Source: Candidatus Magasanikbacteria bacterium CG10_big_fil_rev_8_21_14_0_10_36_32
Lineage (GTDB): Bacteria > Patescibacteriota > Patescibacteriia > Magasanikbacterales > GWA2-37-8
Direction of reading: 5' to 3'
DNA length: 64,000 nucleotides
NCBI GenBank assembly: GCA_002778465.1
Contig: PFBV01000003.1
Location: forward strand, 151,736 to 215,735
This document shows, one piece after another, positions 7,945 through 45,257 of the stretch. The position numbers were made by a program, and so were the translations under genes. Every line of letters begins with the position of its first letter. Position 1 is the first letter of the stretch. The notes under the pieces are model-generated. The model did no database searches. It worked only from the letters and a program-made list of their open reading frames with translations, and was not told the origin of the DNA.

Positions 7945-8484
7945 ATGAAAATAAAAATTATTGCCGGTCTAGGTAATCCGGGAATAGAATATGCAAATTC
8001 CAAACACAATACCGGTTTTGTAATTATTGATTTAATAGCCAATATTTGCAAAGCTGACGATTTTGAATTCAATAAAAAATTTAATGCGGAAATAACTACT
8101 GGAAAAATTGGAAAAACAAAAATTATATTTATAAAACCGCAAACCTTCATGAATAACTCCGGAAAATCAATCCGTCCATTAATGAATTTTTATAAAATTA
8201 AACCTGAAAATTTAATAGTGATTCATGATGATAAAGATATTTTATTTGGGGAATTTAAAATTCAAACTAATCGCGGACCTGCCGGACATAACGGAGTAAT
8301 ATCGGTAATGAAAAACTTAAAAACAGAAAATTTTACCCGCATCCGTGTCGGCACTTCACCGTCACACAAAAGAAAAATAGGAAATATTATAAAATTTGTC
8401 ATGTCTTCTTATAGTAAACCGGAATTAAACGCCTTAAAAAAAATTTCTAAACAAATATTTGAACGGCTTGAATCAATATTGTAA
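7945..8484 (+). CDS. pth: Peptidyl-tRNA hydrolase
   Basis: MKIKIIAGLGNPGIEYANSKHNTGF is the canonical Pth N-terminus. Length 179 aa. Confidence 0.9.
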   Translation: MKIKIIAGLGNPGIEYANSKHNTGFVIIDLIANICKADDFEFNKKFNAEITTGKIGKTKIIFIKPQTFMNNSGKSIRPLMNFYKIKPENLIVIHDDKDILFGEFKIQTNRGPAGHNGVISVMKNLKTENFTRIRVGTSPSHKRKIGNIIKFVMSSYSKPELNALKKISKQIFERLESIL

Positions 8485-12397: not shown

Positions 12398-12575
12398 AGT
12401 GCAGGCGCGAAGGGCGAACCTTAATGCCAATGGTGATACAAAGGGCCAATCGCGACCTGCTTCAATATTCTATCAAAAACAGTCTAAATATGCAAGAAAA
12501 AACGATTAAAATAGGAATACCGCCCCGTAAAACGGAGCGGTATTCTTTAGCACTAAAGGTTTTTTTGTATCACGA
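12398..12575 (-). ncRNA. Candidate small non-coding RNA of about 175 nt, class undetermined. Strand inferred from the flanking promoter.
   Basis: A consensus promoter (12581-12609, minus) and a terminator (12370-12397) bracket about 175 nt with no ORF. A long-range helix pairs GUGAUACAAA with UUUGUAUCAC, and internal hairpins are present (GAAUACCGC...GCGGUAUUC; CUUUAG..CUAAAG). Confidence 0.4.
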
Positions 12576-12580
12576 AAAGT

Positions 12581-12609
12581 ATTATAGCACATTTTAAGGC
12601 TCTTGTCAA
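12581..12609 (-). promoter_or_regulatory. Consensus sigma70 promoter with extended -10 (copy 1 of a 4-copy promoter module)
   Basis: Minus strand: TTGACA, then AGAGCCTTAAAATGTGC (17 nt), then TATAAT. Confidence 0.6.
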
Positions 12610-12618
12610 GTCCTGTAA

Positions 12619-14163: not shown

Positions 14164-15165
14164 CTATTGGCTCACCCAATATTTTTGCAGAAGTTCGCTT
14201 CTGATTTTTTGCGTGTTTCCGTGTTTCAGCATCCCCAAATATGATTGTAATGTTTCCTCTTTTGGATTTTCTTTCACACTGGCAAACATCCTTCTTTTTG
14301 TCGCCCGCCGCAAAACGCGATGGTCGGGAAAATTAACCCAGCCGAGAAAATCCGCGCCGGAAGCGTAGGTTTGAATAAAAACTTTTTTATCGTGCAAAGA
14401 CAATTTCAGCCGTGTTTGTAAAAATTCGGCGATTCGTAAAATAATATTTTTAAGCCATTTTTTGTCCGCTGATAATATGGCAAAATCATCAGCGTAACGG
14501 ATATATTTTTTCGCGCGCAAATTATGTTTCATCCATTGGTCCAATTCATTCAAATAGACATTGGAAAATAATTGAGAAGTCAAATTACCCAGCGGTAAAC
14601 CGACACCGGTTTTGTTTTCGTCGGAATAACTCTCAATCACATTTTTTAACAGCCGCATAATATTTTTATTCGGGATATATTCATCTAAAATTTCCATCAA
14701 AATATTATGGTCAATGCTGGCGAAAAACTTGCGAATATCGCATTTTAATATCCAGCAAGTCCGGCTGTTATTGCGGCTTTCGCTTAAAGCCATCCGTTGA
14801 AACCGCTTGACCGCTTTGTGTGTGCCTTTATTCAGACGGCAAGAATACGAATCGGCGATGAATAACCGGTCAAAAAACGAATATAATATCCGATAAATGG
14901 CGTGATGCAACAAGCGATCGCGGACGCCGGCTTTGTGGATGTGGCGCGGCTTCGGGTCGCTGATATTAAACGCTTCGTAAGGCCCGTGCCGGTAATTTCC
15001 GCTTGCCAAATCTTCGTGAAGAGATATAATATTATCAGCTAGGTTGCGGCTGAATTCTAAAACATCAGGCTTGGATTTCTTGCCGACAACAAACTCGCCC
15101 CAGGCGAGAAATAAATTTTCAAATGAAATAATATCTTCAAAACTATGGTTCAGCTTGCTTTTCAT
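14164..15165 (-). CDS. DGR reverse transcriptase. The ORF track extends it to 15306, but the likely start is MKSKLNHSFEDIISFENLFLAWGEF, preceded by AGGA.
   Basis: RT domains with LPLGNLTSQLFSNVYLNELDQ (the DGR-specific I/LGxxxSQ motif that replaces QGxxxSP) and YADDFAILS. Size of about 333 aa is typical of DGR RTs. GC content is higher than the host background. Confidence 0.88.
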   Translation of the reverse strand: MKSKLNHSFEDIISFENLFLAWGEFVVGKKSKPDVLEFSRNLADNIISLHEDLASGNYRHGPYEAFNISDPKPRHIHKAGVRDRLLHHAIYRILYSFFDRLFIADSYSCRLNKGTHKAVKRFQRMALSESRNNSRTCWILKCDIRKFFASIDHNILMEILDEYIPNKNIMRLLKNVIESYSDENKTGVGLPLGNLTSQLFSNVYLNELDQWMKHNLRAKKYIRYADDFAILSADKKWLKNIILRIAEFLQTRLKLSLHDKKVFIQTYASGADFLGWVNFPDHRVLRRATKRRMFASVKENPKEETLQSYLGMLKHGNTQKIRSELLQKYWVSQ

Positions 15166-15185
15166 AATAATAATTCCTCTTATAA

Positions 15186-15195
15186 CCCCCCCCCC
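15186..15195. repeat. Homopolymeric C10 (G10 on the minus strand) tract between the divergent RT and avd-like starts
   Basis: tataaCCCCCCCCCCgacaa. It lies about 20 nt upstream of the RT start codon and about 8 nt upstream of the avd-like GTG start. Confidence 0.8.
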
Positions 15196-15203
15196 GACAA
15201 CCC

Positions 15204-15548
15204 GTGGTGATTGGCAAGGGTAAGGAAGCATACCAACTCTGGCTTGTTCTTCATAGAAACTTTCCCAAAACGGAACGTTTTGGTTTGGGTCAAAAAATTG
15301 ACACAATATTTTTAGAAATTTTAGAACTTGGTTATTCGGCCGGATATCTGCCGCCCGAACAGAAAACCGTCGCCTTGGGAAAAACCATCACTCGCTTGGA
15401 TATATTAAAATTTCTTTTTCAAATTGCATGGGAAAATAAACTGATTCCAAACAATAAATACATTATACTGTCTCAAAAACTGGAAGAAATCGGCCGCATG
15501 CTCGGCGGCTGGAAAAAGGGGCTTCTAAACAAAACTCCCGTAAATTAA
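15204..15548 (+). CDS. avd: Avd-like accessory protein (four-helix bundle, 23S rRNA intervening-sequence protein family), on the strand opposite to the RT and TR
   Basis: FPKTERFGLGQKID... and ...LSQKLEEIGRMLGGWKKGL match the 23S_rRNA_IVP/Avd family pattern (FPKxExxxL.sQlrRA ... eigkmL.gL). It occupies the TR-RT spacer. GTG start. Confidence 0.6.
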   Translation: MVIGKGKEAYQLWLVLHRNFPKTERFGLGQKIDTIFLEILELGYSAGYLPPEQKTVALGKTITRLDILKFLFQIAWENKLIPNNKYIILSQKLEEIGRMLGGWKKGLLNKTPVN

Positions 15549-15564
15549 ACGGGAGAAAACAACA

Positions 15565-15668
15565 GTCGCGAGAAAAGACACGGTTGCCAGCGTTCCACCT
15601 GTTCGGATTCTCAACCGAATTGGCGTTCACGTTCCAGCCGTCATCGTTCCGGTTTACGTTCACGGCGC
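15565..15668 (-). repeat. DGR template repeat (TR)
   Basis: A stretch of about 104 bp homologous to the 3' ends of both target genes. On the minus strand it reads ...AVNVNRNDDGWNVNANSVENPNRWNAGNRVFSR with many AAC codons. All 12 mismatches to VR1 fall at TR adenines. Confidence 0.85.
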
Positions 15669-15918
15669 CCGTTTTCACGCAAAAAATCATCCTTTGCACC
15701 ATTCCTTGAATACTCTTGGAATTGAATTTTATATGGGACATAAGAAGTCCTCTAATTTTTCGCGCCGATTCTTGTTTTTTTGAAAAATTTTTTTATACTC
15801 TCGCGCAAGGCATGCCCAGCACGACTCTCACAAAAAATATTTTAGATACTGTGTCACGCAAGCCGTAGCCGACGCGAAAAACACAATTTCCATTTTTATA
15901 ATAGCATAAAATTTTAGA

Positions 15919-15947
15919 TAAAAAAAGCCCCGCACAAGTGCGGGGCC
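15919..15947 (-). terminator. Intrinsic terminator of target gene 1, a conserved GC-rich hairpin also present downstream of target 2. It may also act as a DGR homing stem-loop/cruciform.
   Basis: Minus strand: GCCCCGCACTTGTGCGGGGC followed by TTTTTTT. A near-identical hairpin sits at 43985-44004. Confidence 0.65.
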
Positions 15948-16006
15948 GAAGAGCCAAAGGAACAAAGAGTTAAAGGGTCAAAAGGATAAGGATAAGGAAA
16001 CAAGAA

Positions 16007-16603
16007 TCAGCGAGAAAAGACACGGCTGCCAGCGCTCCACCTGTCCGGATCCTCAACCGAATTGGCGTGCACGTCCCAGCCGTCACCGTACCGGTGGACG
16101 TACACGGCGCGGAGCACTCCACTGACATCGCGAACATAGAAGATGTTCGTATAGCCGTTGGTGAGAAGTACGCCCGGCTCGCCGTTTGGCTGACAATTCA
16201 CCAGTTTGTAAACGCCGGCCATGGTGACTTCGGCCTTGGCTTCGCCGCCGAGGTCGTTGAGAATTTCGCAATCCAGAGAGACCTTGCTGAGGTCGTGGTG
16301 AGGACGCGAAACCGCCACATCCTTCGCTTCCTCGGTCTTGCCGTAGAACCAGGACTTAAAATTGTCGCCGATGTACAAGAACTTGATGGTGATGTTGGAC
16401 AGCTTGAAGTGGTCGGCGATGGCGAACTTGGTGACGGTGCCGACGATCAGGGCGGCGATCTGCTTGCGCAGGTCGGCGTCCTTGAGCACGCGCTCCATGT
16501 CGCTGTCATCCCCGCCGATGTCCAGCACGGCGTTGGCGATGGCCTTCATAAACCCGAAGGCCTTGCCCATCCCCTTCAGGAACTCACTCGTTTTCTTTGC
16601 CAT
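16007..16603 (-). CDS. DGR variable (target) protein 1, with the C-terminal VR spanning the last 33 codons (about 16008-16110)
   Basis: 198 aa. The C-terminus AVYVHRYGDGWDVHANSVEDPDRWSAGSRVFSR aligns to the TR with substitutions only at AAC/GAC adenines. The gene is GC-rich (about 55%), has an AAGGAG RBS, and is paralogous to the gene at 44066-44617. Confidence 0.85.
   Translation of the reverse strand: MAKKTSEFLKGMGKAFGFMKAIANAVLDIGGDDSDMERVLKDADLRKQIAALIVGTVTKFAIADHFKLSNITIKFLYIGDNFKSWFYGKTEEAKDVAVSRPHHDLSKVSLDCEILNDLGGEAKAEVTMAGVYKLVNCQPNGEPGVLLTNGYTNIFYVRDVSGVLRAVYVHRYGDGWDVHANSVEDPDRWSAGSRVFSR
16008..16110 (-). repeat. DGR variable repeat VR1
   Basis: The nucleotide alignment to the TR shows 12 differences, all at TR adenine positions on the coding strand. 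Confidence 0.85.
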
Positions 16604-16699
16604 GACACTTTCTCCTTGTTTTTGGTCTGCCTCTTGCTAACGCGACATGCGCCAGCCTATGGCTTGCCATTTTTAAAGAACATTACATTATAAGCGAAG

Positions 16700-16844
16700 C
16701 TTAAAATTACGGCGTTGCTCATATAATGAAAAATAAATTTTCCATTTATTCACAACTTGCCATTATAAGTGAAAATCTTGAAATGGCGGCGTTGTTCATA
16801 TATAGAAAACAAGGTTTTTCATCTATTCACAACTTGCCATTATA
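16700..16844. repeat. Tandem repeat, 2 copies of about 77 bp (about 80% identical), in the 5' leader of target gene 1
   Basis: Units cttaaaattacggcgttgctcatataatgaaaaataaattttccatttattcacaacttgccattat and cttgaaatggcggcgttgttcatatatagaaaacaaggtttttcatctattcacaacttgccattat. Each contains the near-palindrome AATGAAAAAT..ATTTTCCATT. Confidence 0.8.
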
Positions 16845-16867
16845 GCACATTTTGAAGGTTTTGTCAA
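16839..16867 (-). promoter_or_regulatory. Consensus sigma70 promoter (copy 2 of the module) driving the repeat-containing leader and target gene 1
   Basis: Minus strand: TTGACA, then AAACCTTCAAAATGTGC (17 nt), then TATAAT. Confidence 0.6.
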
Positions 16868-38948: not shown

Positions 38949-38977
38949 TTGACAAAACCCTCAAAATGTGCTATAAT
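38949..38977 (+). promoter_or_regulatory. Consensus sigma70 promoter (copy 3 of the module)
   Basis: TTGACA, then AAACCCTCAAAATGTGC (17 nt), then TATAAT. Confidence 0.6.
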
Positions 38978-43409: not shown

Positions 43410-43838
43410 TTATTGTTTAACCGCTTTCGGTCTCTTGCTGCCATAAATACTGCGTCCGCGTCGACGAGATTCAATACCTTGAGTATCATAAACTCCGCGA
43501 ACGATATGATAACGAACACCCGGTAAATCTTTCACGCGACCGCCGCGCAACAAAACAATTGAGTGCTCCTGTAAATTATGTCCTTCACCCGGAATGTAAG
43601 CAATAACTTCCATACCATTGGACAAACGAACTTTTGCCACTTTTCTCAAAGCCGAATTCGGTTTCTTTGGTGTAGTGGTATAAACTTTAGTACAAACTCC
43701 GCGTTTAAAAGACGAACCCTTTGAAAGCACGGTTTTCTTGCGGTGTAAATTGTCGGTCATAAATTGCAAAGCAGGGGTTTTTGATTTAACCACCTTGTTT
43801 TTGCGACCTTTCCGCAATACCTGATTAATAGTAGGCAT
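43410..43838 (-). CDS. rpsL: 30S ribosomal protein S12
   Basis: [13 protein letters not shown]...[11 protein letters not shown]. Confidence 0.95.
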
Positions 43839-43977
43839 AGTACAAAATTTTTAATTTATAATTTATATTTTTTTGAATAAAAAAGACTGAACGAAATGCT
43901 CAGCCACGAGTTTTTGTTTAGTCTCACGTTCTGCGAATAGAATACATTATTTTTATAAATGTGTCAATAGTTATTAA

Positions 43978-44006
43978 AGTGGATAAAAAGGCCCCGCATA
44001 AATGCG
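43978..44006 (-). terminator. Intrinsic terminator of target gene 2 (conserved GC hairpin)
   Basis: Minus strand: GCCCCGCATTTATGCGGGGC followed by CTTTTTAT. Confidence 0.6.
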
Positions 44007-44065
44007 GGGCCGAAGAGCCAAAGGAACAAAGGGTCAAAGAGTCAAAAAATATAAGGGAACAAGAA

Positions 44066-44617
44066 TCAGCAAGAGAATACGCGGAGGTCGGCGCACCACC
44101 TGCTCGGAAACCCAACCGAATGGGCGCGCACGTCCCAGCCGCCATCGAGCCGGTTCACATACACAGCGCGAAGCACCCTGTTGACATCGAGAACATAGAA
44201 AATGTTCGCATAGCCGTTGGTGAGAAGTACGCCCGCCTCGCCATTTGGCTGGATCTTCAAGAGCTCATAGATGCCGGACATAGTAACTTCGACCTTAGCT
44301 TTGCCGCCGAGGTCATCAATAATTTCGCAATCCAACGAAGCCGCCTTACAGAGGTCGTGGTGAGGATGCGGAACAACCAAATCCTTTACTTCTTCAGTCT
44401 TGCTGTAAAACCACAACTTGAAGTTGTCGCCGATATAACTGAACTTTACTGCGGCGTTGGACAGCGTGAAATTGTCGGCGACAACGAACTTATTGACAGC
44501 GGTTTCCAAAAATCCATCCGGATTCTTGAGGAACTTCTGAAAATTGGCGGACGTAACTCGTCCGGCCTCCACCTGCCTAAAAAATTCCTTCATCTGTTTG
44601 AAACTGGGTTGTAACAT
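44066..44617 (-). CDS. DGR variable (target) protein 2, a remote paralog, with VR2 at about 44067-44168. Likely start MLQPSFKQ (AGGAG RBS); the ORF track extends it to 44635.
   Basis: The C-terminal 130 aa are homologous to target 1. The final 33 codons (AVYVNRLDGGWDVRAHSVGFPSRWCADLRVFSC) align to the TR with about 20 substitutions at TR adenines plus about 8 non-adenine changes. GC-rich. Confidence 0.8.
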   Translation of the reverse strand: MLQPSFKQMKEFFRQVEAGRVTSANFQKFLKNPDGFLETAVNKFVVADNFTLSNAAVKFSYIGDNFKLWFYSKTEEVKDLVVPHPHHDLCKAASLDCEIIDDLGGKAKVEVTMSGIYELLKIQPNGEAGVLLTNGYANIFYVLDVNRVLRAVYVNRLDGGWDVRAHSVGFPSRWCADLRVFSC

Positions 44618-44720
44618 TCTATCATCTCCTTGCATCCGCAGTATTTAAACAATACATCCGACATCATTGCCAAACATACTGCCAATAAACCTGACGGACA
44701 CGGTAAAAAGAACCGATGTT

Positions 44721-44753: not shown

Positions 44754-44787
44754 ACAAAAAAATGCCCTCAACATTTCTGTTGAGGGC
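44754..44787 (-). terminator. Intrinsic terminator between the upstream small ORF and target gene 2
   Basis: Minus strand: GCCCTCAACAGAAATGTTGAGGGC followed by TTTTTTT. Confidence 0.55.
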
Positions 44788-44833
44788 AAAAGAGCGAAGA
44801 AAAGCGGCTTGACCACTTTTTGGTGATGGGCTA

Positions 44834-45010
44834 TTACTTTTCCGGGGTGAAAATGGAGAGCGTGTAGCAACTCAGGCAGTTGCACTGAATGCGAGAAATG
44901 CGGATACATCTCGTTTTGCGGTTGATGCTGAAGTATCGATGAACCATATGAATTTTGGTTTCCTGACAAGTATCACACATAAGCCACTCAAACTTCATTT
45001 TAGAAATCAT
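44834..45010 (-). CDS. Putative small zinc-ribbon protein of 58 aa. The ORF track offers a longer 92-aa form that starts inside the tandem repeat.
   Basis: MKFEWLMCDTCQETKIH...RCIRISRIQCNC, i.e. C-x2-C ... C-x7-C-x-C. Lies between the repeat-bearing leader and target 2. Confidence 0.3.
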   Translation of the reverse strand: MISKMKFEWLMCDTCQETKIHMVHRYFSINRKTRCIRISRIQCNCLSCYTLSIFTPEK

Positions 45011-45076: not shown

Positions 45077-45226
45077 TTTATAAATAAAACTTGAAATTAC
45101 TGCGTTGCTCATATAATGAAAAATAAATTTTTCATCTATTCACAACTTGTGTGTTTATAAATAAAACTTGAAATTACTGCGTTGCTCATATAATGAAAAA
45201 TAAATTTTTCATCTATTCACAACTTG
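45077..45226. repeat. Tandem repeat, 2 near-identical copies of about 77 bp, same family as 16700-16844
   Basis: tttataaataaaacttgaaattactgcgttgctcatataatgaaaaataaatttttcatctattcacaacttg occurs twice. Confidence 0.85.
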
Positions 45227-45228
45227 AA

Positions 45229-45257
45229 ATTATAGCACATTTTTGGGTTTTTGTCAA
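45229..45257 (-). promoter_or_regulatory. Consensus sigma70 promoter (copy 4 of the module)
   Basis: Minus strand: TTGACA, then AAAACCCAAAAATGTGC (17 nt), then TATAAT. Confidence 0.6.

Follow-up and report, generated by a model that had tools for sequence, protein, structure and literature searches.

A second, non-adjacent target gene of a DGR in a Magasanikbacteria genome, with a variable repeat in step with the template at its centre and drifted at its 3' end

The stretch of DNA analyzed here (hereafter the window) comprises 64,000 nucleotides of contig PFBV01000003.1 from Candidatus Magasanikbacteria bacterium CG10_big_fil_rev_8_21_14_0_10_36_32, and contains a DGR. Its reverse transcriptase (RT) gene (14164–15165, minus strand) encodes a protein of 333 aa from an ATG at 15165 that matches Pfam RVT_1 (E=7.9e-23) and shows in translation the motifs LGNLTSQ and YADD, as expected of a DGR-type RT. 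The accessory gene avd (15204–15548; Pfam bAvd, E=5.6e-15) lies on the plus strand, opposite to the RT and to the template repeat (TR; 15568–15668, minus strand), which carries eight AAC and two AAT codons and is followed closely by a conserved hairpin, CTCCCG-loop-CGGGAG (15535–15555, minus strand). Target gene 1 (16007–16603, minus strand) is adjacent to the RT and contains the variable repeat VR1 at 16010–16110. A repeat search found three copies of the 101-nt repeat in the window, namely the TR, VR1 and a variable repeat, VR2 (44069–44169, minus strand), that is located 28.5 kb from the TR on the same contig. Besides these three, no TR-like sequence was found in the 64-kb window, nor was any further RT or Avd. 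Target 1 and target 2 are both oriented in the inferred direction of replication, the arrangement favoured for retrohoming (PMC12875486).

VR2 belongs to target gene 2 (44066–44617, minus strand), recognized by its ORF, its ribosome-binding site and its paralogy to target 1. The likeliest start is the ATG at 44617, preceded at 8 nt by the ribosome-binding site AAGGAG and giving a protein of 183 aa; an in-frame ATG at 44635 extends the ORF to 189 aa. The ORF is intact and ends with a TGA stop codon (44066–44068, minus strand), and VR2 ends at the last sense codon. The variable repeat is accordingly placed as in DGR targets, at the 3' end of the ORF, with the TR adenines in the first and second positions of AAC-type codons. 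The two target proteins showed 60% identity over 165 aa (BLASTP, E=9e-71), so that the paralogy proposed in an earlier note on this DNA was borne out. Target protein 2 had no Pfam match, no signal peptide or transmembrane segment was recognized in it, and only 30 homologues were found; it belongs to a small family of DGR variable proteins that lacks annotation and occurs mostly in Patescibacteria. The third-closest homologue (P0003) proved not to be a third target of the window TR; it comes from another sample.

Downstream of target gene 2 and on the same strand lie rpsL (43410–43838), rpsG and fusA, in agreement with the location 5' of these genes given in the earlier note. Target gene 2 and rpsL are set apart by two terminator-like hairpins along with a promoter-like site, making co-transcription with the str operon unlikely. 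The two transcription units are separated by terminators. There is no sign that the position next to rpsL is functional, and it looks incidental. On the upstream side, two tandem 77-nt repeats (45086–45257, minus strand) are found behind a perfect TTGACA-17-TATAAT promoter, and the same arrangement of promoter and tandem repeats exists at target locus 1 (16696–16867). Independent contigs of 65–168 kb from several samples spanned the target 2 locus at 100% identity, and hence faulty assembly does not account for it.

The 3' flank and hairpin are 90% identical between both targets over 63 nt (15921–15983 versus 43985–44047). Between VR2 and the hairpin, four CTYNG motifs are arrayed at an exact spacing of 8 nt (44011–44039, minus strand); target 1 has an array of the same period at 15947–15967. 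In the window such arrays were found at both target flanks only, with 0.01 expected by chance, and in 669 kb of family loci 26 out of 28 arrays were located at most 200 nt downstream of a target gene. A period of 9 nt (CTTTGNNNNCTTTG) showed no enrichment, the actual one being 8 nt. The GC-rich hairpin of target 2 (43990–44011, minus strand) has a 9-bp stem and a TTTA loop, and is followed by a T-run; that of target 1 (15927–15946) has the same stem and a CTTG loop. The claim that both targets share their 3' flank and hairpin was thus upheld, except that the loops differ. The target 2 hairpin is an intrinsic terminator and may double as a DGR target hairpin. A GC-rich inverted repeat is present downstream of the IMH in about a third of DGRs, and target 2 has its hairpin in that position. 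As for the proposal that a target cassette had been duplicated, it holds only in part: the loci are mosaics whose N-terminal modules differ, locus 2 includes a small additional ORF, and the shared 3'-flank motifs are conserved throughout the lineage and not just between the two copies.

VR2 aligned to the TR without gaps. It was changed at 17 of the 25 TR adenines and at 8 of the 76 other positions (Fisher P=6.7e-8), that is, mismatches were essentially confined to TR adenines, as in DGR variable repeats, and the changes fell in AAC codons. About 20 adenine-templated and about 8 other changes had been claimed previously; the pattern and the second figure were correct, whereas the first one is 17. 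VR1 differed from the TR by 11 mismatches, all at adenines and none elsewhere. VR1 and VR2 differed from each other at 16 adenine sites, which means that ordinary gene conversion cannot account for their similarity. The eight non-adenine changes of VR2 (T5, T11, C80, A82, C89, A92, C95 and T99, numbered by TR position) were clustered (permutation P=0.002), six of them falling in the last 22 nt, consistent with several such changes having been noticed near the 3' end.

The central part of VR2 (TR positions 12–79; 44091–44158, minus strand; 68 nt) was in step with the TR. It contained 15 of the 17 adenine-site changes and none at the 47 non-adenine sites, 21 third codon positions included. By contrast, the gene bodies of targets 1 and 2 differed at 72 of 327 sites (22%; 32% at third codon positions), with a longest identical run of 26 nt. 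The difference between centre and gene bodies was significant whether the counts were compared directly (Fisher P=3.5e-5), the 22% divergence was taken as the expectation (P=8e-6) or third positions alone were considered (0/21 against 32%, P=3e-4). It follows that TR-templated cDNA entered VR2 after the duplication and that the repeat was rewritten from this TR, or from an identical one, once the paralogues had diverged. With RT, Avd and TR at 14164–15668 on the same contig, target 2 was confirmed as a genuine second, non-adjacent target of this DGR.

A TR of another DGR located outside the window, with ends matching those of VR2, might have served this repeat instead. In favour of this, the eight non-adenine differences are grouped towards the two ends of the repeat, a pattern that a sister TR deviating in these parts would produce; the window is only part of the genome, and some genomes of the lineage carry paralogues that misfit their local TR. 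However, all 47 central non-adenine sites agree with the local TR, so that any second TR must have been copied very recently, the window contains no second TR, RT or Avd, and the IMH core of VR2 fits the primer-like RNA segment of the local element (see below). A scan of metagenome_contigs with a VR pattern in which adenine sites were left free retrieved the target 2 contig itself and one unrelated locus (L002, an unrelated target of 142 aa whose VR is 85% identical), which also speaks against another TR but carries little weight, as this collection does not include the DGR locus. The same scan gave no match in genome_contigs, and the species representatives in that collection hence do not include this organism. 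Overall, we regard service by another TR as improbable.

The 3' end of VR2 (TR positions 80–101; 44069–44090, minus strand; 22 nt) was diverged at 6 of 20 non-adenine sites, approximately the overall rate of the paralogues. Four of these six changes are synonymous and at third positions, the other two being G->D and R->C; considering all eight non-adenine changes, six are synonymous third-position changes and six are transitions. That the changes at the 3' end are mostly synonymous indicates that the protein is still under purifying selection. Four of the six are at most 12 nt away from the inferred cDNA start. The segment directly upstream of the IMH core contains four mismatches to the TR, and these could weaken annealing at VR2. 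Wu et al. described DGRs in which one of two targets had seven differences other than adenine-to-N and the other only adenine-to-N changes, and suggested non-canonical mutagenesis by the RT for such cases (PMC5758913). It is, however, very improbable that the DGR itself produced the non-adenine differences of VR2, since the preponderance of synonymous third-position changes and of transitions is that of neutral drift under purifying selection, the 47 central sites were spared, and VR1 has no such difference.

Upstream of the TR, alignment of related loci delimited a conserved structured RNA domain with helices P1–P3 (15672–15790, minus strand). Together with the hairpin that follows the TR, it showed compensatory changes at 25 of 28 pairs (RNAalifold). 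The domain matched Rfam RT-16 weakly (25.7 bits, for a gathering score of 50), and neither the window's DGR region nor any of 12 related loci contained an Rfam family at gathering score. A primer-like 'anti-IMH' segment, AAACAAGAATCGGCGC (15762–15777, minus strand), is located at the 5' base of helix P1; in reverse complement it corresponds to the IMHs of VR1 and VR2. The IMH core of target 1 is located at 15998–16008 (minus strand); that of target 2, GATTCTTGTTC (44057–44067, minus strand), overlaps the stop codon and has target-type discriminator bases, the target-type motif GATTCTTGTT being kept after VR2. The IMH* of the TR, GACTGTTGTTT (15557–15567, minus strand), departs from the target type at the two discriminator positions typical of the lineage. 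VR2 is therefore followed by an IMH distinct from that of the TR and of the same type as that of VR1.

The reverse complement of segment 15767–15777, GATTCTTGTTT, was matched at 11/11 positions by VR1, 10/11 by VR2 and 9/11 by the TR, whose mismatches sit at the discriminator positions. Predicted energies for the duplex with this RNA segment were −24.9, −21.5 and −14.1 kcal/mol, respectively, so that RNA located beside the inferred cDNA start is predicted to pair better with the target IMH than with IMH*. Whether the 3' end of VR2 retains an IMH, a point raised in the earlier note, is answered by its target-type core and 10/11 complementarity. The same two positions separate VR from TR across 27 loci: VR matched the anti-IMH at core positions 0–4 in 93–96% of them, whereas the TR matched at positions 2 and 4 in just 26% and 41%. 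Covariation was evident in these loci from 195 matches out of 297 (159.7 ± 5.7 in permutations) and from the fraction of paired cells, 83% versus 72% in shuffles, of which 0/500 reached as high a value. Seven of eight pairs had changes on both sides, and slid registers were 29–46% paired. Across these loci, the IMH motif covaries with a complementary segment of the conserved structured RNA. Such pairing is not a new idea, having been proposed for BPP-1 by Naorem et al. in 2017 (PMC5703328).

The drifted 3' end could also mean that target 2 has been retired, i.e. that it was once diversified, that its mismatched end now bars homing, and that only ordinary mutation acts on it. Six non-adenine changes in 22 nt, one of which replaces a conserved Gly (GGC->GAC), would fit this, as would the invariance of VR2 in every assembly recovered. 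In addition, in the same-genome pairs L043/L053 and L024/L066, the remote paralogues L053 and L066 misfit their local TRs by 15–18 non-adenine mismatches, indicating that decay of remote copies does occur in the lineage. However, VR1 is just as invariant and hence invariance does not tell the targets apart; both repeats were constant across at least nine assemblies, but these are 99.9–100% identical and the comparison has low power. No strain variant of VR2 appeared in the scan of metagenome_contigs, which also missed the TR and VR1 of the window. The absence of ordinary substitutions at the 47 central sites would make any retirement recent relative to the age of the duplication, the ORF, IMH core, repeat array and hairpin of target 2 are all intact, and the mostly synonymous changes at the 3' end indicate that purifying selection on the protein persists. 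The view of target 2 as an older or decaying target that is homed inefficiently is therefore right for its last 22 nt, which have drifted, but is at odds with the synchronized centre, the intact target-type IMH and the position of four of the 3' changes beside the inferred cDNA start. We consider retirement possible, albeit unlikely.

As a whole, the explanation that best accounts for these observations, and one that we hold to be quite probable, is that 44066–44617 is a trans target of the single DGR of the window, with homing by a proposed RNA-primer mechanism. The TR would be transcribed together with the conserved structured 5' RNA domain, and the RT-Avd complex would copy it into cDNA with misincorporation opposite adenines. 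The cDNA, probably still joined to the primer segment (AAACAAGAAUC, 15767–15777), would then anneal to the sense strand of the target, the primer segment pairing with the target IMH core (GATTCTTGTT). The two matching bases are missing from the IMH* of the TR itself (GACTGTTGTT), which would make transfer directional. The primer role and the boundary of transfer are taken from BPP-1 by analogy, and target 2 may still be active at present. Two non-exclusive reasons are likely for the 3' drift of VR2: the drifted segment adjoins the cDNA start, where markers may not transfer, and the remote copy may be homed into less often, or with resolution at a point further upstream. Against full homing, the changes at TR positions 80 and 82 lie between mutated AAC codons, in a zone that full-length homing should overwrite. 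The difference between the hairpin loops of the two targets (TTTA and CTTG) also counts against this explanation, given the importance of the loop sequence in BPP-1 (PMC3240598).

More tentatively, and with odds that we would place somewhat below even, targets of this kind may be defined by a portable code consisting of an IMH core that pairs with the primer-like segment of the 5' RNA plus the CTYNG array, an element not described before. Any paralogue bearing it, wherever in the genome, would be rewritten in trans, and resolution several nucleotides upstream of the cDNA start would leave the last 10–20 nt of remote VRs free to drift without their centres falling out of step. If so, comparative rather than experimental support for the RNA-primer:IMH model of directionality would be provided for the first time by the covariation in 27 loci, and retrohoming would have a new cis element in the array of 8-nt period. 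The contrast between the synchronized centre and the drifted 3' end of VR2 may be read as a natural record of the point at which transfer of information begins. Covariation between the sequence following the VR and the RNA is relevant to the way in which DGR cDNA locates and enters its target, which a 2026 paper still calls unknown. Comparison within the lineage also revealed the conserved repeat array downstream of targets, and covariation and array together suggest simple retargeting rules for such elements.

In BPP-1, the segment equivalent to the 3' end of VR2 is not co-converted, as markers are not transferred beside the cDNA start (PMC5703328). Inspection of the BPP-1 sequence showed that spacer nucleotides 48–56, the last of which is the priming A56, show complementarity to the IMH at 9/9 positions and to IMH* at 6/9. 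The element described here resembles BPP-1 in that the target IMH differs from the IMH* of the TR at few positions, in having a GC-rich hairpin with a 4-nt loop downstream of the target, and in that an RNA segment abutting the cDNA start, to which a primer role is assigned here by analogy, is complementary to the IMH and not to IMH*. Both elements even share the IMH string GATTCTTG. They differ in the location of the primer-like segment, which is in the spacer 3' of the TR in BPP-1 but, in the present element, about 100 nt upstream of the TR and at the base of the structured domain; avd is here also on the opposite strand. The hairpin, the loop sequence of which matters in BPP-1 (PMC3240598), lies about 55–60 nt from the VR, compared with 4–34 bp in BPP-1-type elements; its loop is not GRNA, and the gap between VR and hairpin is filled by the 8-nt-period array. 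The structured RNA is, like RT-16 (Rfam RF03019; Weinberg et al. 2017, PMC5737381), situated beside reverse-transcriptase genes and shares with it the block AUAAAAUaCA...stem...GGUG, but its match is below threshold (25.7 versus 50 bits) and the primer-like segment is outside the matched part of the model.

A second, non-adjacent target is not new in itself. Wu et al. (2018) found remote targets in 45 of 372 DGRs, and the DGR of Treponema denticola has seven (PMC5758913). As in those systems, a paralogue tens of kb from RT and TR, with a C-terminal VR, is served in trans by one set of RT, Avd and TR; unlike them, target 2 contrasts a fully synchronized centre with a drifted 3' end, and at least 21 of 70 target-family loci have no RT nearby. 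The element is similar to CPR DGR clade 2 of Roux et al. 2021 (PMC8144416) in its AT-rich, Patescibacteria-like host, its short target without Pfam domain, and its interchangeable N-terminal modules fused to a conserved C-terminal variable domain. In that study remote targets were undetectable because contigs were short (PMC8144416), whereas an adjacent and a remote target are found here on one contig. This single contig shows a CPR DGR serving a distant paralogue, a kind of case that large surveys missed through short contigs; according to one survey, CPR DGRs are usually single-target. Given the many target-family loci without a nearby RT, target repertoires of CPR DGRs are probably underestimated.

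The 70 loci of the target family were found in genome_contigs, mostly in Patescibacteria MAGs, by a search for related loci seeded with an alignment subset of 11 sequences. About 30 have a full RT adjoining the target, and the at least 21 mentioned above lack an RT within 3–6 kb, so that remote copies are frequent in the lineage. Target, opposite-strand avd and RT follow each other in this order in 33 of 34 RT- or Avd-linked related loci, the exception being L072, with avd and RT upstream of its target. A TR was looked for in L035 and not found. In another same-genome pair, L022/L030, the remote VR differed from the TR of that genome by 23 adenine and 6 other mismatches. The pairs L043/L053 and L024/L066 speak neither for nor against activity at remote copies.

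The assemblies that were recovered, among them a 513-kb contig carrying target 1, differed from the window only in two SNPs within the gene body of target 1, a further SNP at 8461, an indel of 14 nt between rpsL and rpsG, and the loss of one copy of the 77-nt repeat.

A repeat search of the window returned three copies of a 101-nt repeat, at 15568–15668, 16010–16110 and 44069–44169. The first adjoins a reverse transcriptase gene (RT; 14164–15165; RVT_1, E=7.9e-23), with a bAvd gene on the strand opposite to RT (15204–15548; E=5.6e-15), and is the template repeat (TR) of a diversity-generating retroelement (DGR). The other two copies, VR1 and VR2, form the 3' termini of a pair of paralogous ORFs, targets 1 and 2, which are 60% identical over 165 aa. 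Target 2 lies on the minus strand, with a TGA stop at 44066–44068 and its likeliest start at ATG 44617, preceded 8 nt upstream by AAGGAG; an alternative in-frame ATG at 44635 gives a 189-aa ORF. In ungapped comparisons, all 11 mismatches between TR and VR1 fall at TR adenines, and VR2 is changed at 17 of 25 adenines and at 8 of the 76 other sites (Fisher P=6.7e-8). The gene, repeats and flanks that the earlier note had described are thus present where it placed them, far beyond chance; the paralogy that it proposed is confirmed, and its estimate of about 20 adenine and about 8 other changes in VR2 was close to the count. Independent contigs of 65–168 kb from several samples cover the target 2 locus at 100% identity, so this locus is not an assembly artefact.

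To ask whether VR2 is a fossil, the divergence of the paralogues was taken from 109 aligned codons upstream of the VR. Divergence of these gene bodies is 22% over all sites and 32% at third codon positions, and their longest identical run is 26 nt. In the centre of VR2 (TR positions 12–79), 47 of 47 non-adenine sites, including 21 third codon positions, are identical to TR, and the same segment holds 15 of the 17 adenine-site changes. The identity of the centre has P=8e-6 at the gene-body divergence rate and P=3e-4 for third positions alone; the direct comparison with the gene bodies gave Fisher P=3.5e-5, and a permutation of the clustering P=0.002. Plain gene conversion as the source of this pattern was rejected because it cannot yield a VR1 and a VR2 that differ from each other, as observed, at 16 adenine sites, and purifying selection is likewise unable to produce it. 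The VR2 centre was written from the TR of the window, or from a TR identical to it, once the paralogues had diverged.

The non-adenine differences of VR2 lie at TR positions 5, 11, 80, 82, 89, 92, 95 and 99. Six of the eight are within the last 22 nt, where 6 of 20 non-adenine sites differ from TR, approximately the paralogue level. Likewise, six of the eight are synonymous third-position changes, the remaining two being G->D and R->C, a pattern that resembles drift in a gene whose protein is under purifying selection rather than errors made by the RT. Positions 89, 92, 95 and 99 are 2–12 nt from the inferred cDNA start. In the Bordetella phage DGR BPP-1, markers within ~5–10 nt of the cDNA start (TR107–112; start TR117) were not transferred (PMC5703328) and, by analogy, these four positions may lie in a zone that homing never overwrites. 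A full-length homing event in the recent past is difficult to square only with the changes at positions 80 and 82. The proposal of an older or decaying target is therefore partly supported: the last 22 nt have diverged, but the centre was rewritten after the duplication, with recognition elements kept.

The exact target 2 protein, with the genes around it, was found again in at least nine assemblies (ENA ERZ272934xx, several JGI samples and Logan SRR62407xx), which are 99.9–100% identical to the window, the population being near-clonal at consensus level. VR1 and VR2 are both invariant across these assemblies, so that comparing their variability, as the earlier note had proposed, cannot discriminate between a live and a fossil target. 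The only differences seen were three SNPs, of which two lie in the target 1 gene body and the third at 8461, and two length changes: a 14-nt indel between rpsL and rpsG, and the loss, in one assembly (L012/L016), of one 77-nt repeat copy upstream of target 2.

Recognition elements were analyzed by aligning 28 TR/VR pairs of the lineage, which share a boundary after conserved ...VFSR codons. Beyond it, targets read (A/G)ATTC(Y).. where TRs have (A/G/T)ACT(N)...; two discriminator positions, shared by nearly all pairs, set VR apart from TR. In the window, the recognition motif (IMH) is CTGATTCTTGTT in VR1 and VR2 alike, and TR carries CGACTGTTGTT; VR2 therefore retains the target-type discriminators, a check that the earlier note had proposed. 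Upstream of TR, a structured RNA domain (15672–15790, minus strand) is conserved in the same region of 26 related loci (alignment A6). RNAalifold predicted four helices, namely P1, P2 and P3 upstream of TR and a hairpin after it; 25 of 28 pairs, those of the hairpin included, show compensatory changes. An Rfam search with the domain upstream of TR gave no family at the gathering score, and RT-16 was sub-threshold at 25.7 bits.

A primer-like segment (15762–15777, minus strand; AAACAAGAATCGGCGC) lies immediately 5' of helix P1, and its reverse complement corresponds to the IMH core of targets. The segment is complementary to the IMH cores of both targets (15998–16010 and 44057–44069), and its distal half to the 3' flank of TR itself. 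Predicted duplex energies with this segment were -24.9, -21.5 and -14.1 kcal/mol for VR1, VR2 and TR, respectively. Registers of segment and IMH core were fixed independently and then compared over 27 loci. The complement of the segment matched VR at core positions 0–4 in 93–96% of the loci, whereas only 26% and 41% matched TR at the two discriminator positions; against the TR flank, positions 5–10 matched in 59–89%. Segment–VR matches amounted to 195, and segment–TR-flank matches to 219, versus 160 ± 6 in permutations for each. In a count of structure pairs, 83% of cells were paired versus 72% in shuffles (0 of 500 as high), slid registers being only 29–46% paired. Changes occurred on both sides in seven of eight pairs, and independent compensatory variants include AACTC, AATTG, GATTG, GATCC and AAGTA. 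This covariation supports a putative primer–IMH pairing.

In BPP-1, spacer nucleotides 48–56 (AGGUGGUCA), ending at the priming A56, are analogous to this segment, as their complementarity extends over 9 of 9 positions of the VR IMH and over 6 of 9 in IMH*, the TR counterpart; the same preference was reported by Naorem et al. (2017; PMC5703328). The idea of primer–IMH pairing is thus not new; what is new is the comparative support and the layout since, unlike in BPP-1, the primer-like segment is 5' of TR. By analogy, the RNA domain upstream of TR may fill the role of the BPP-1 spacer, which is 3' of TR.

Between VR and the downstream hairpin, both targets carry CTYNG motifs exactly 8 nt apart (15947–15967 for target 1 and 44011–44039 for target 2, minus strand; typical unit ACCCTTTG). 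In the window, the three-unit pattern occurs solely at the two target flanks (0.01 expected by chance). In 56 flanks of the family, CTYNG occurs 4.1 times per 90 nt versus 0.64 in the background (~6.5-fold), with 88 cases of successive motifs 8 nt apart, and of the 28 arrays present in 669 kb of family loci, 26 follow a target gene by no more than 200 nt and share its strand. The array is present in nearly all targets of the family, adjacent and remote alike (3' flanks of L020–L084), and is absent from TR flanks. It may be a cis element through which targets are recognised or, alternatively, an element of the 3' UTR. With its 9-bp stem, 4-nt loop and T-run, the hairpin is an ordinary intrinsic terminator and may double as the DGR target hairpin, although it is farther from the VR than in BPP-1-type elements (PMC3240598).

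The 3' flanks (15921–15983 and 43985–44047) are 90% identical. The duplication of a target cassette that had been proposed is partly right, but the flanks are more than a trace of duplication since they carry the CTYNG array, and the two loci are mosaics. Identity between them is 82% for the promoter plus a shared upstream block of 77-nt repeats and 79% for the C-terminal 130 codons, with no relation between their N-terminal modules. A Cys-rich 58-aa ORF (CxxC...C..CxCxxC; 44834–45010, minus strand), which has a good ribosome-binding site and a terminator of its own (44763–44788), sits between the 77-nt repeats and target 2 and has no counterpart in locus 1. A weaker promoter-like site, read by eye, precedes target 2. 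A sequence from another metagenome (protein P0030; L091 1–203, aligned to 44502–44704) shares with target 2, at 83% nucleotide identity, the 5' UTR and the first 40 aa, which are fused there to an unrelated C-terminal domain that ends ...SWCGDGWHDGCRFLAVPK. This fits module shuffling among putative DGR targets and the modular evolution described for them.

The target family is small: 30 proteins in 5.8 billion, with no Pfam domain in any of the 30. Its members share the conserved C-terminal motif GVLLTNGYANIFYV..D..GVLRAVYV.W..DGW.V.A.SV..P..W..G.RVFSR. According to Roux et al., recognisable domains are missing from CPR targets, which look modular (PMC8144416). Scanning one genome per species gave 70 family loci, nearly all in Patescibacteria MAGs. 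A full-length RT adjoins the target in ~30 of the 70; four more have an Avd match beside the target and no full-length RT match, the contig or locus ending first in most of them. The order target, opposite-strand avd, RT is kept in 33 of these 34 loci, the exception (L072) having avd and RT upstream of the target, and, of 31 loci examined, 28 were confirmed to hold a TR located between the target and avd. No RT or Avd was found in the 3–6 kb flanks of at least 21 loci.

Five genomes have family copies on two contigs, and three of them allowed a comparison of remote VR and TR within one genome. One remote VR (L022/L030) fits, with 23 adenine and 6 other mismatches, several of the latter near the 3' end; the remote copies in L053 and L066 no longer fit the local TR. 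Together with the RT-less loci, these genomes show that remote paralogues are common in the lineage, in both maintained and decayed states. Two further loci (L038 6682–6810 and L039 2024–2224) have a 43–71-aa RT remnant right after the target gene and look like decayed DGR cassettes leaving orphan targets. A 142-aa protein from another metagenome (L002 142–570, minus strand), with VR DNA 85% identical to VR1, has an unrelated N-terminus and a 25-aa tail after the VR, which is thus internal to the gene.

Non-adjacent targets were documented in 45 of 372 DGRs, some with non-adenine differences in one target, and a single target was described as the usual state of CPR DGRs (PMC5758913); the survey of Roux et al. 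was, by their own account, unable to detect remote targets (PMC8144416). Target 2 is well supported as a real second target of a Patescibacteria-type DGR, a new instance of a known arrangement. Side results of interest to DGR specialists are the covariation supporting primer–IMH pairing, the structured 5' RNA domain, the 8-nt array and the many target loci of this lineage that lack an RT.

Target 2 ends 228 nt upstream of rpsL (43410–43838), which is followed by rpsG and fusA on the same minus strand. The interval contains the terminator of the target, a promoter-like site (43939–43967) and a second terminator-like hairpin, a layout in which no functional link to the str operon was found. Homologues in other genomes have unrelated housekeeping contexts, as in L017/L018, where no TR was found within 10 kb. 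The location is regarded as incidental, except for a shared orientation co-directional with replication. Coding-strand GC skew is +0.22 for minus-strand and -0.01 for plus-strand genes of the window, suggesting that minus is the leading strand and that both targets, like the ribosomal operons, are in the orientation that favours retrohoming according to a 2026 study (PMC12875486). GC content is 58% in target 1 and 50% in target 2 versus a window average of 35.5%, and GC3 is 80% and 62% versus ~30–36% in fusA and rpsL, which suggests a foreign origin, or a bias from the DGR or from codon usage; target 2 is nearer to host composition than target 1.

The two tandem 77-nt repeats (16696–16867 and 45086–45257, minus strand) are directly behind a perfect TTGACA-17-TATAAT promoter, and each repeat contains a palindrome (ATGAAAAAT..ATTTTTCAT) and a short ORF starting MSNAV or MNNAA; the repeats were not found in related loci. 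Further copies of the promoter are at 38949–38977 (plus strand) and 12581–12610 (minus strand), the latter pointing into an intergenic region with a terminator-like hairpin (GAATACCGC..GCGGTATTC) ~45 nt downstream, so that 12510–12580 (minus strand) may encode a short non-coding RNA. Finally, a G10 homopolymer (C10 on the plus strand; 15186–15195), identical in all assemblies seen, occupies the 38-nt gap between the divergent starts of RT (ATG 15165) and avd (GTG 15204) and might switch the DGR on and off by a slipped-strand mechanism.
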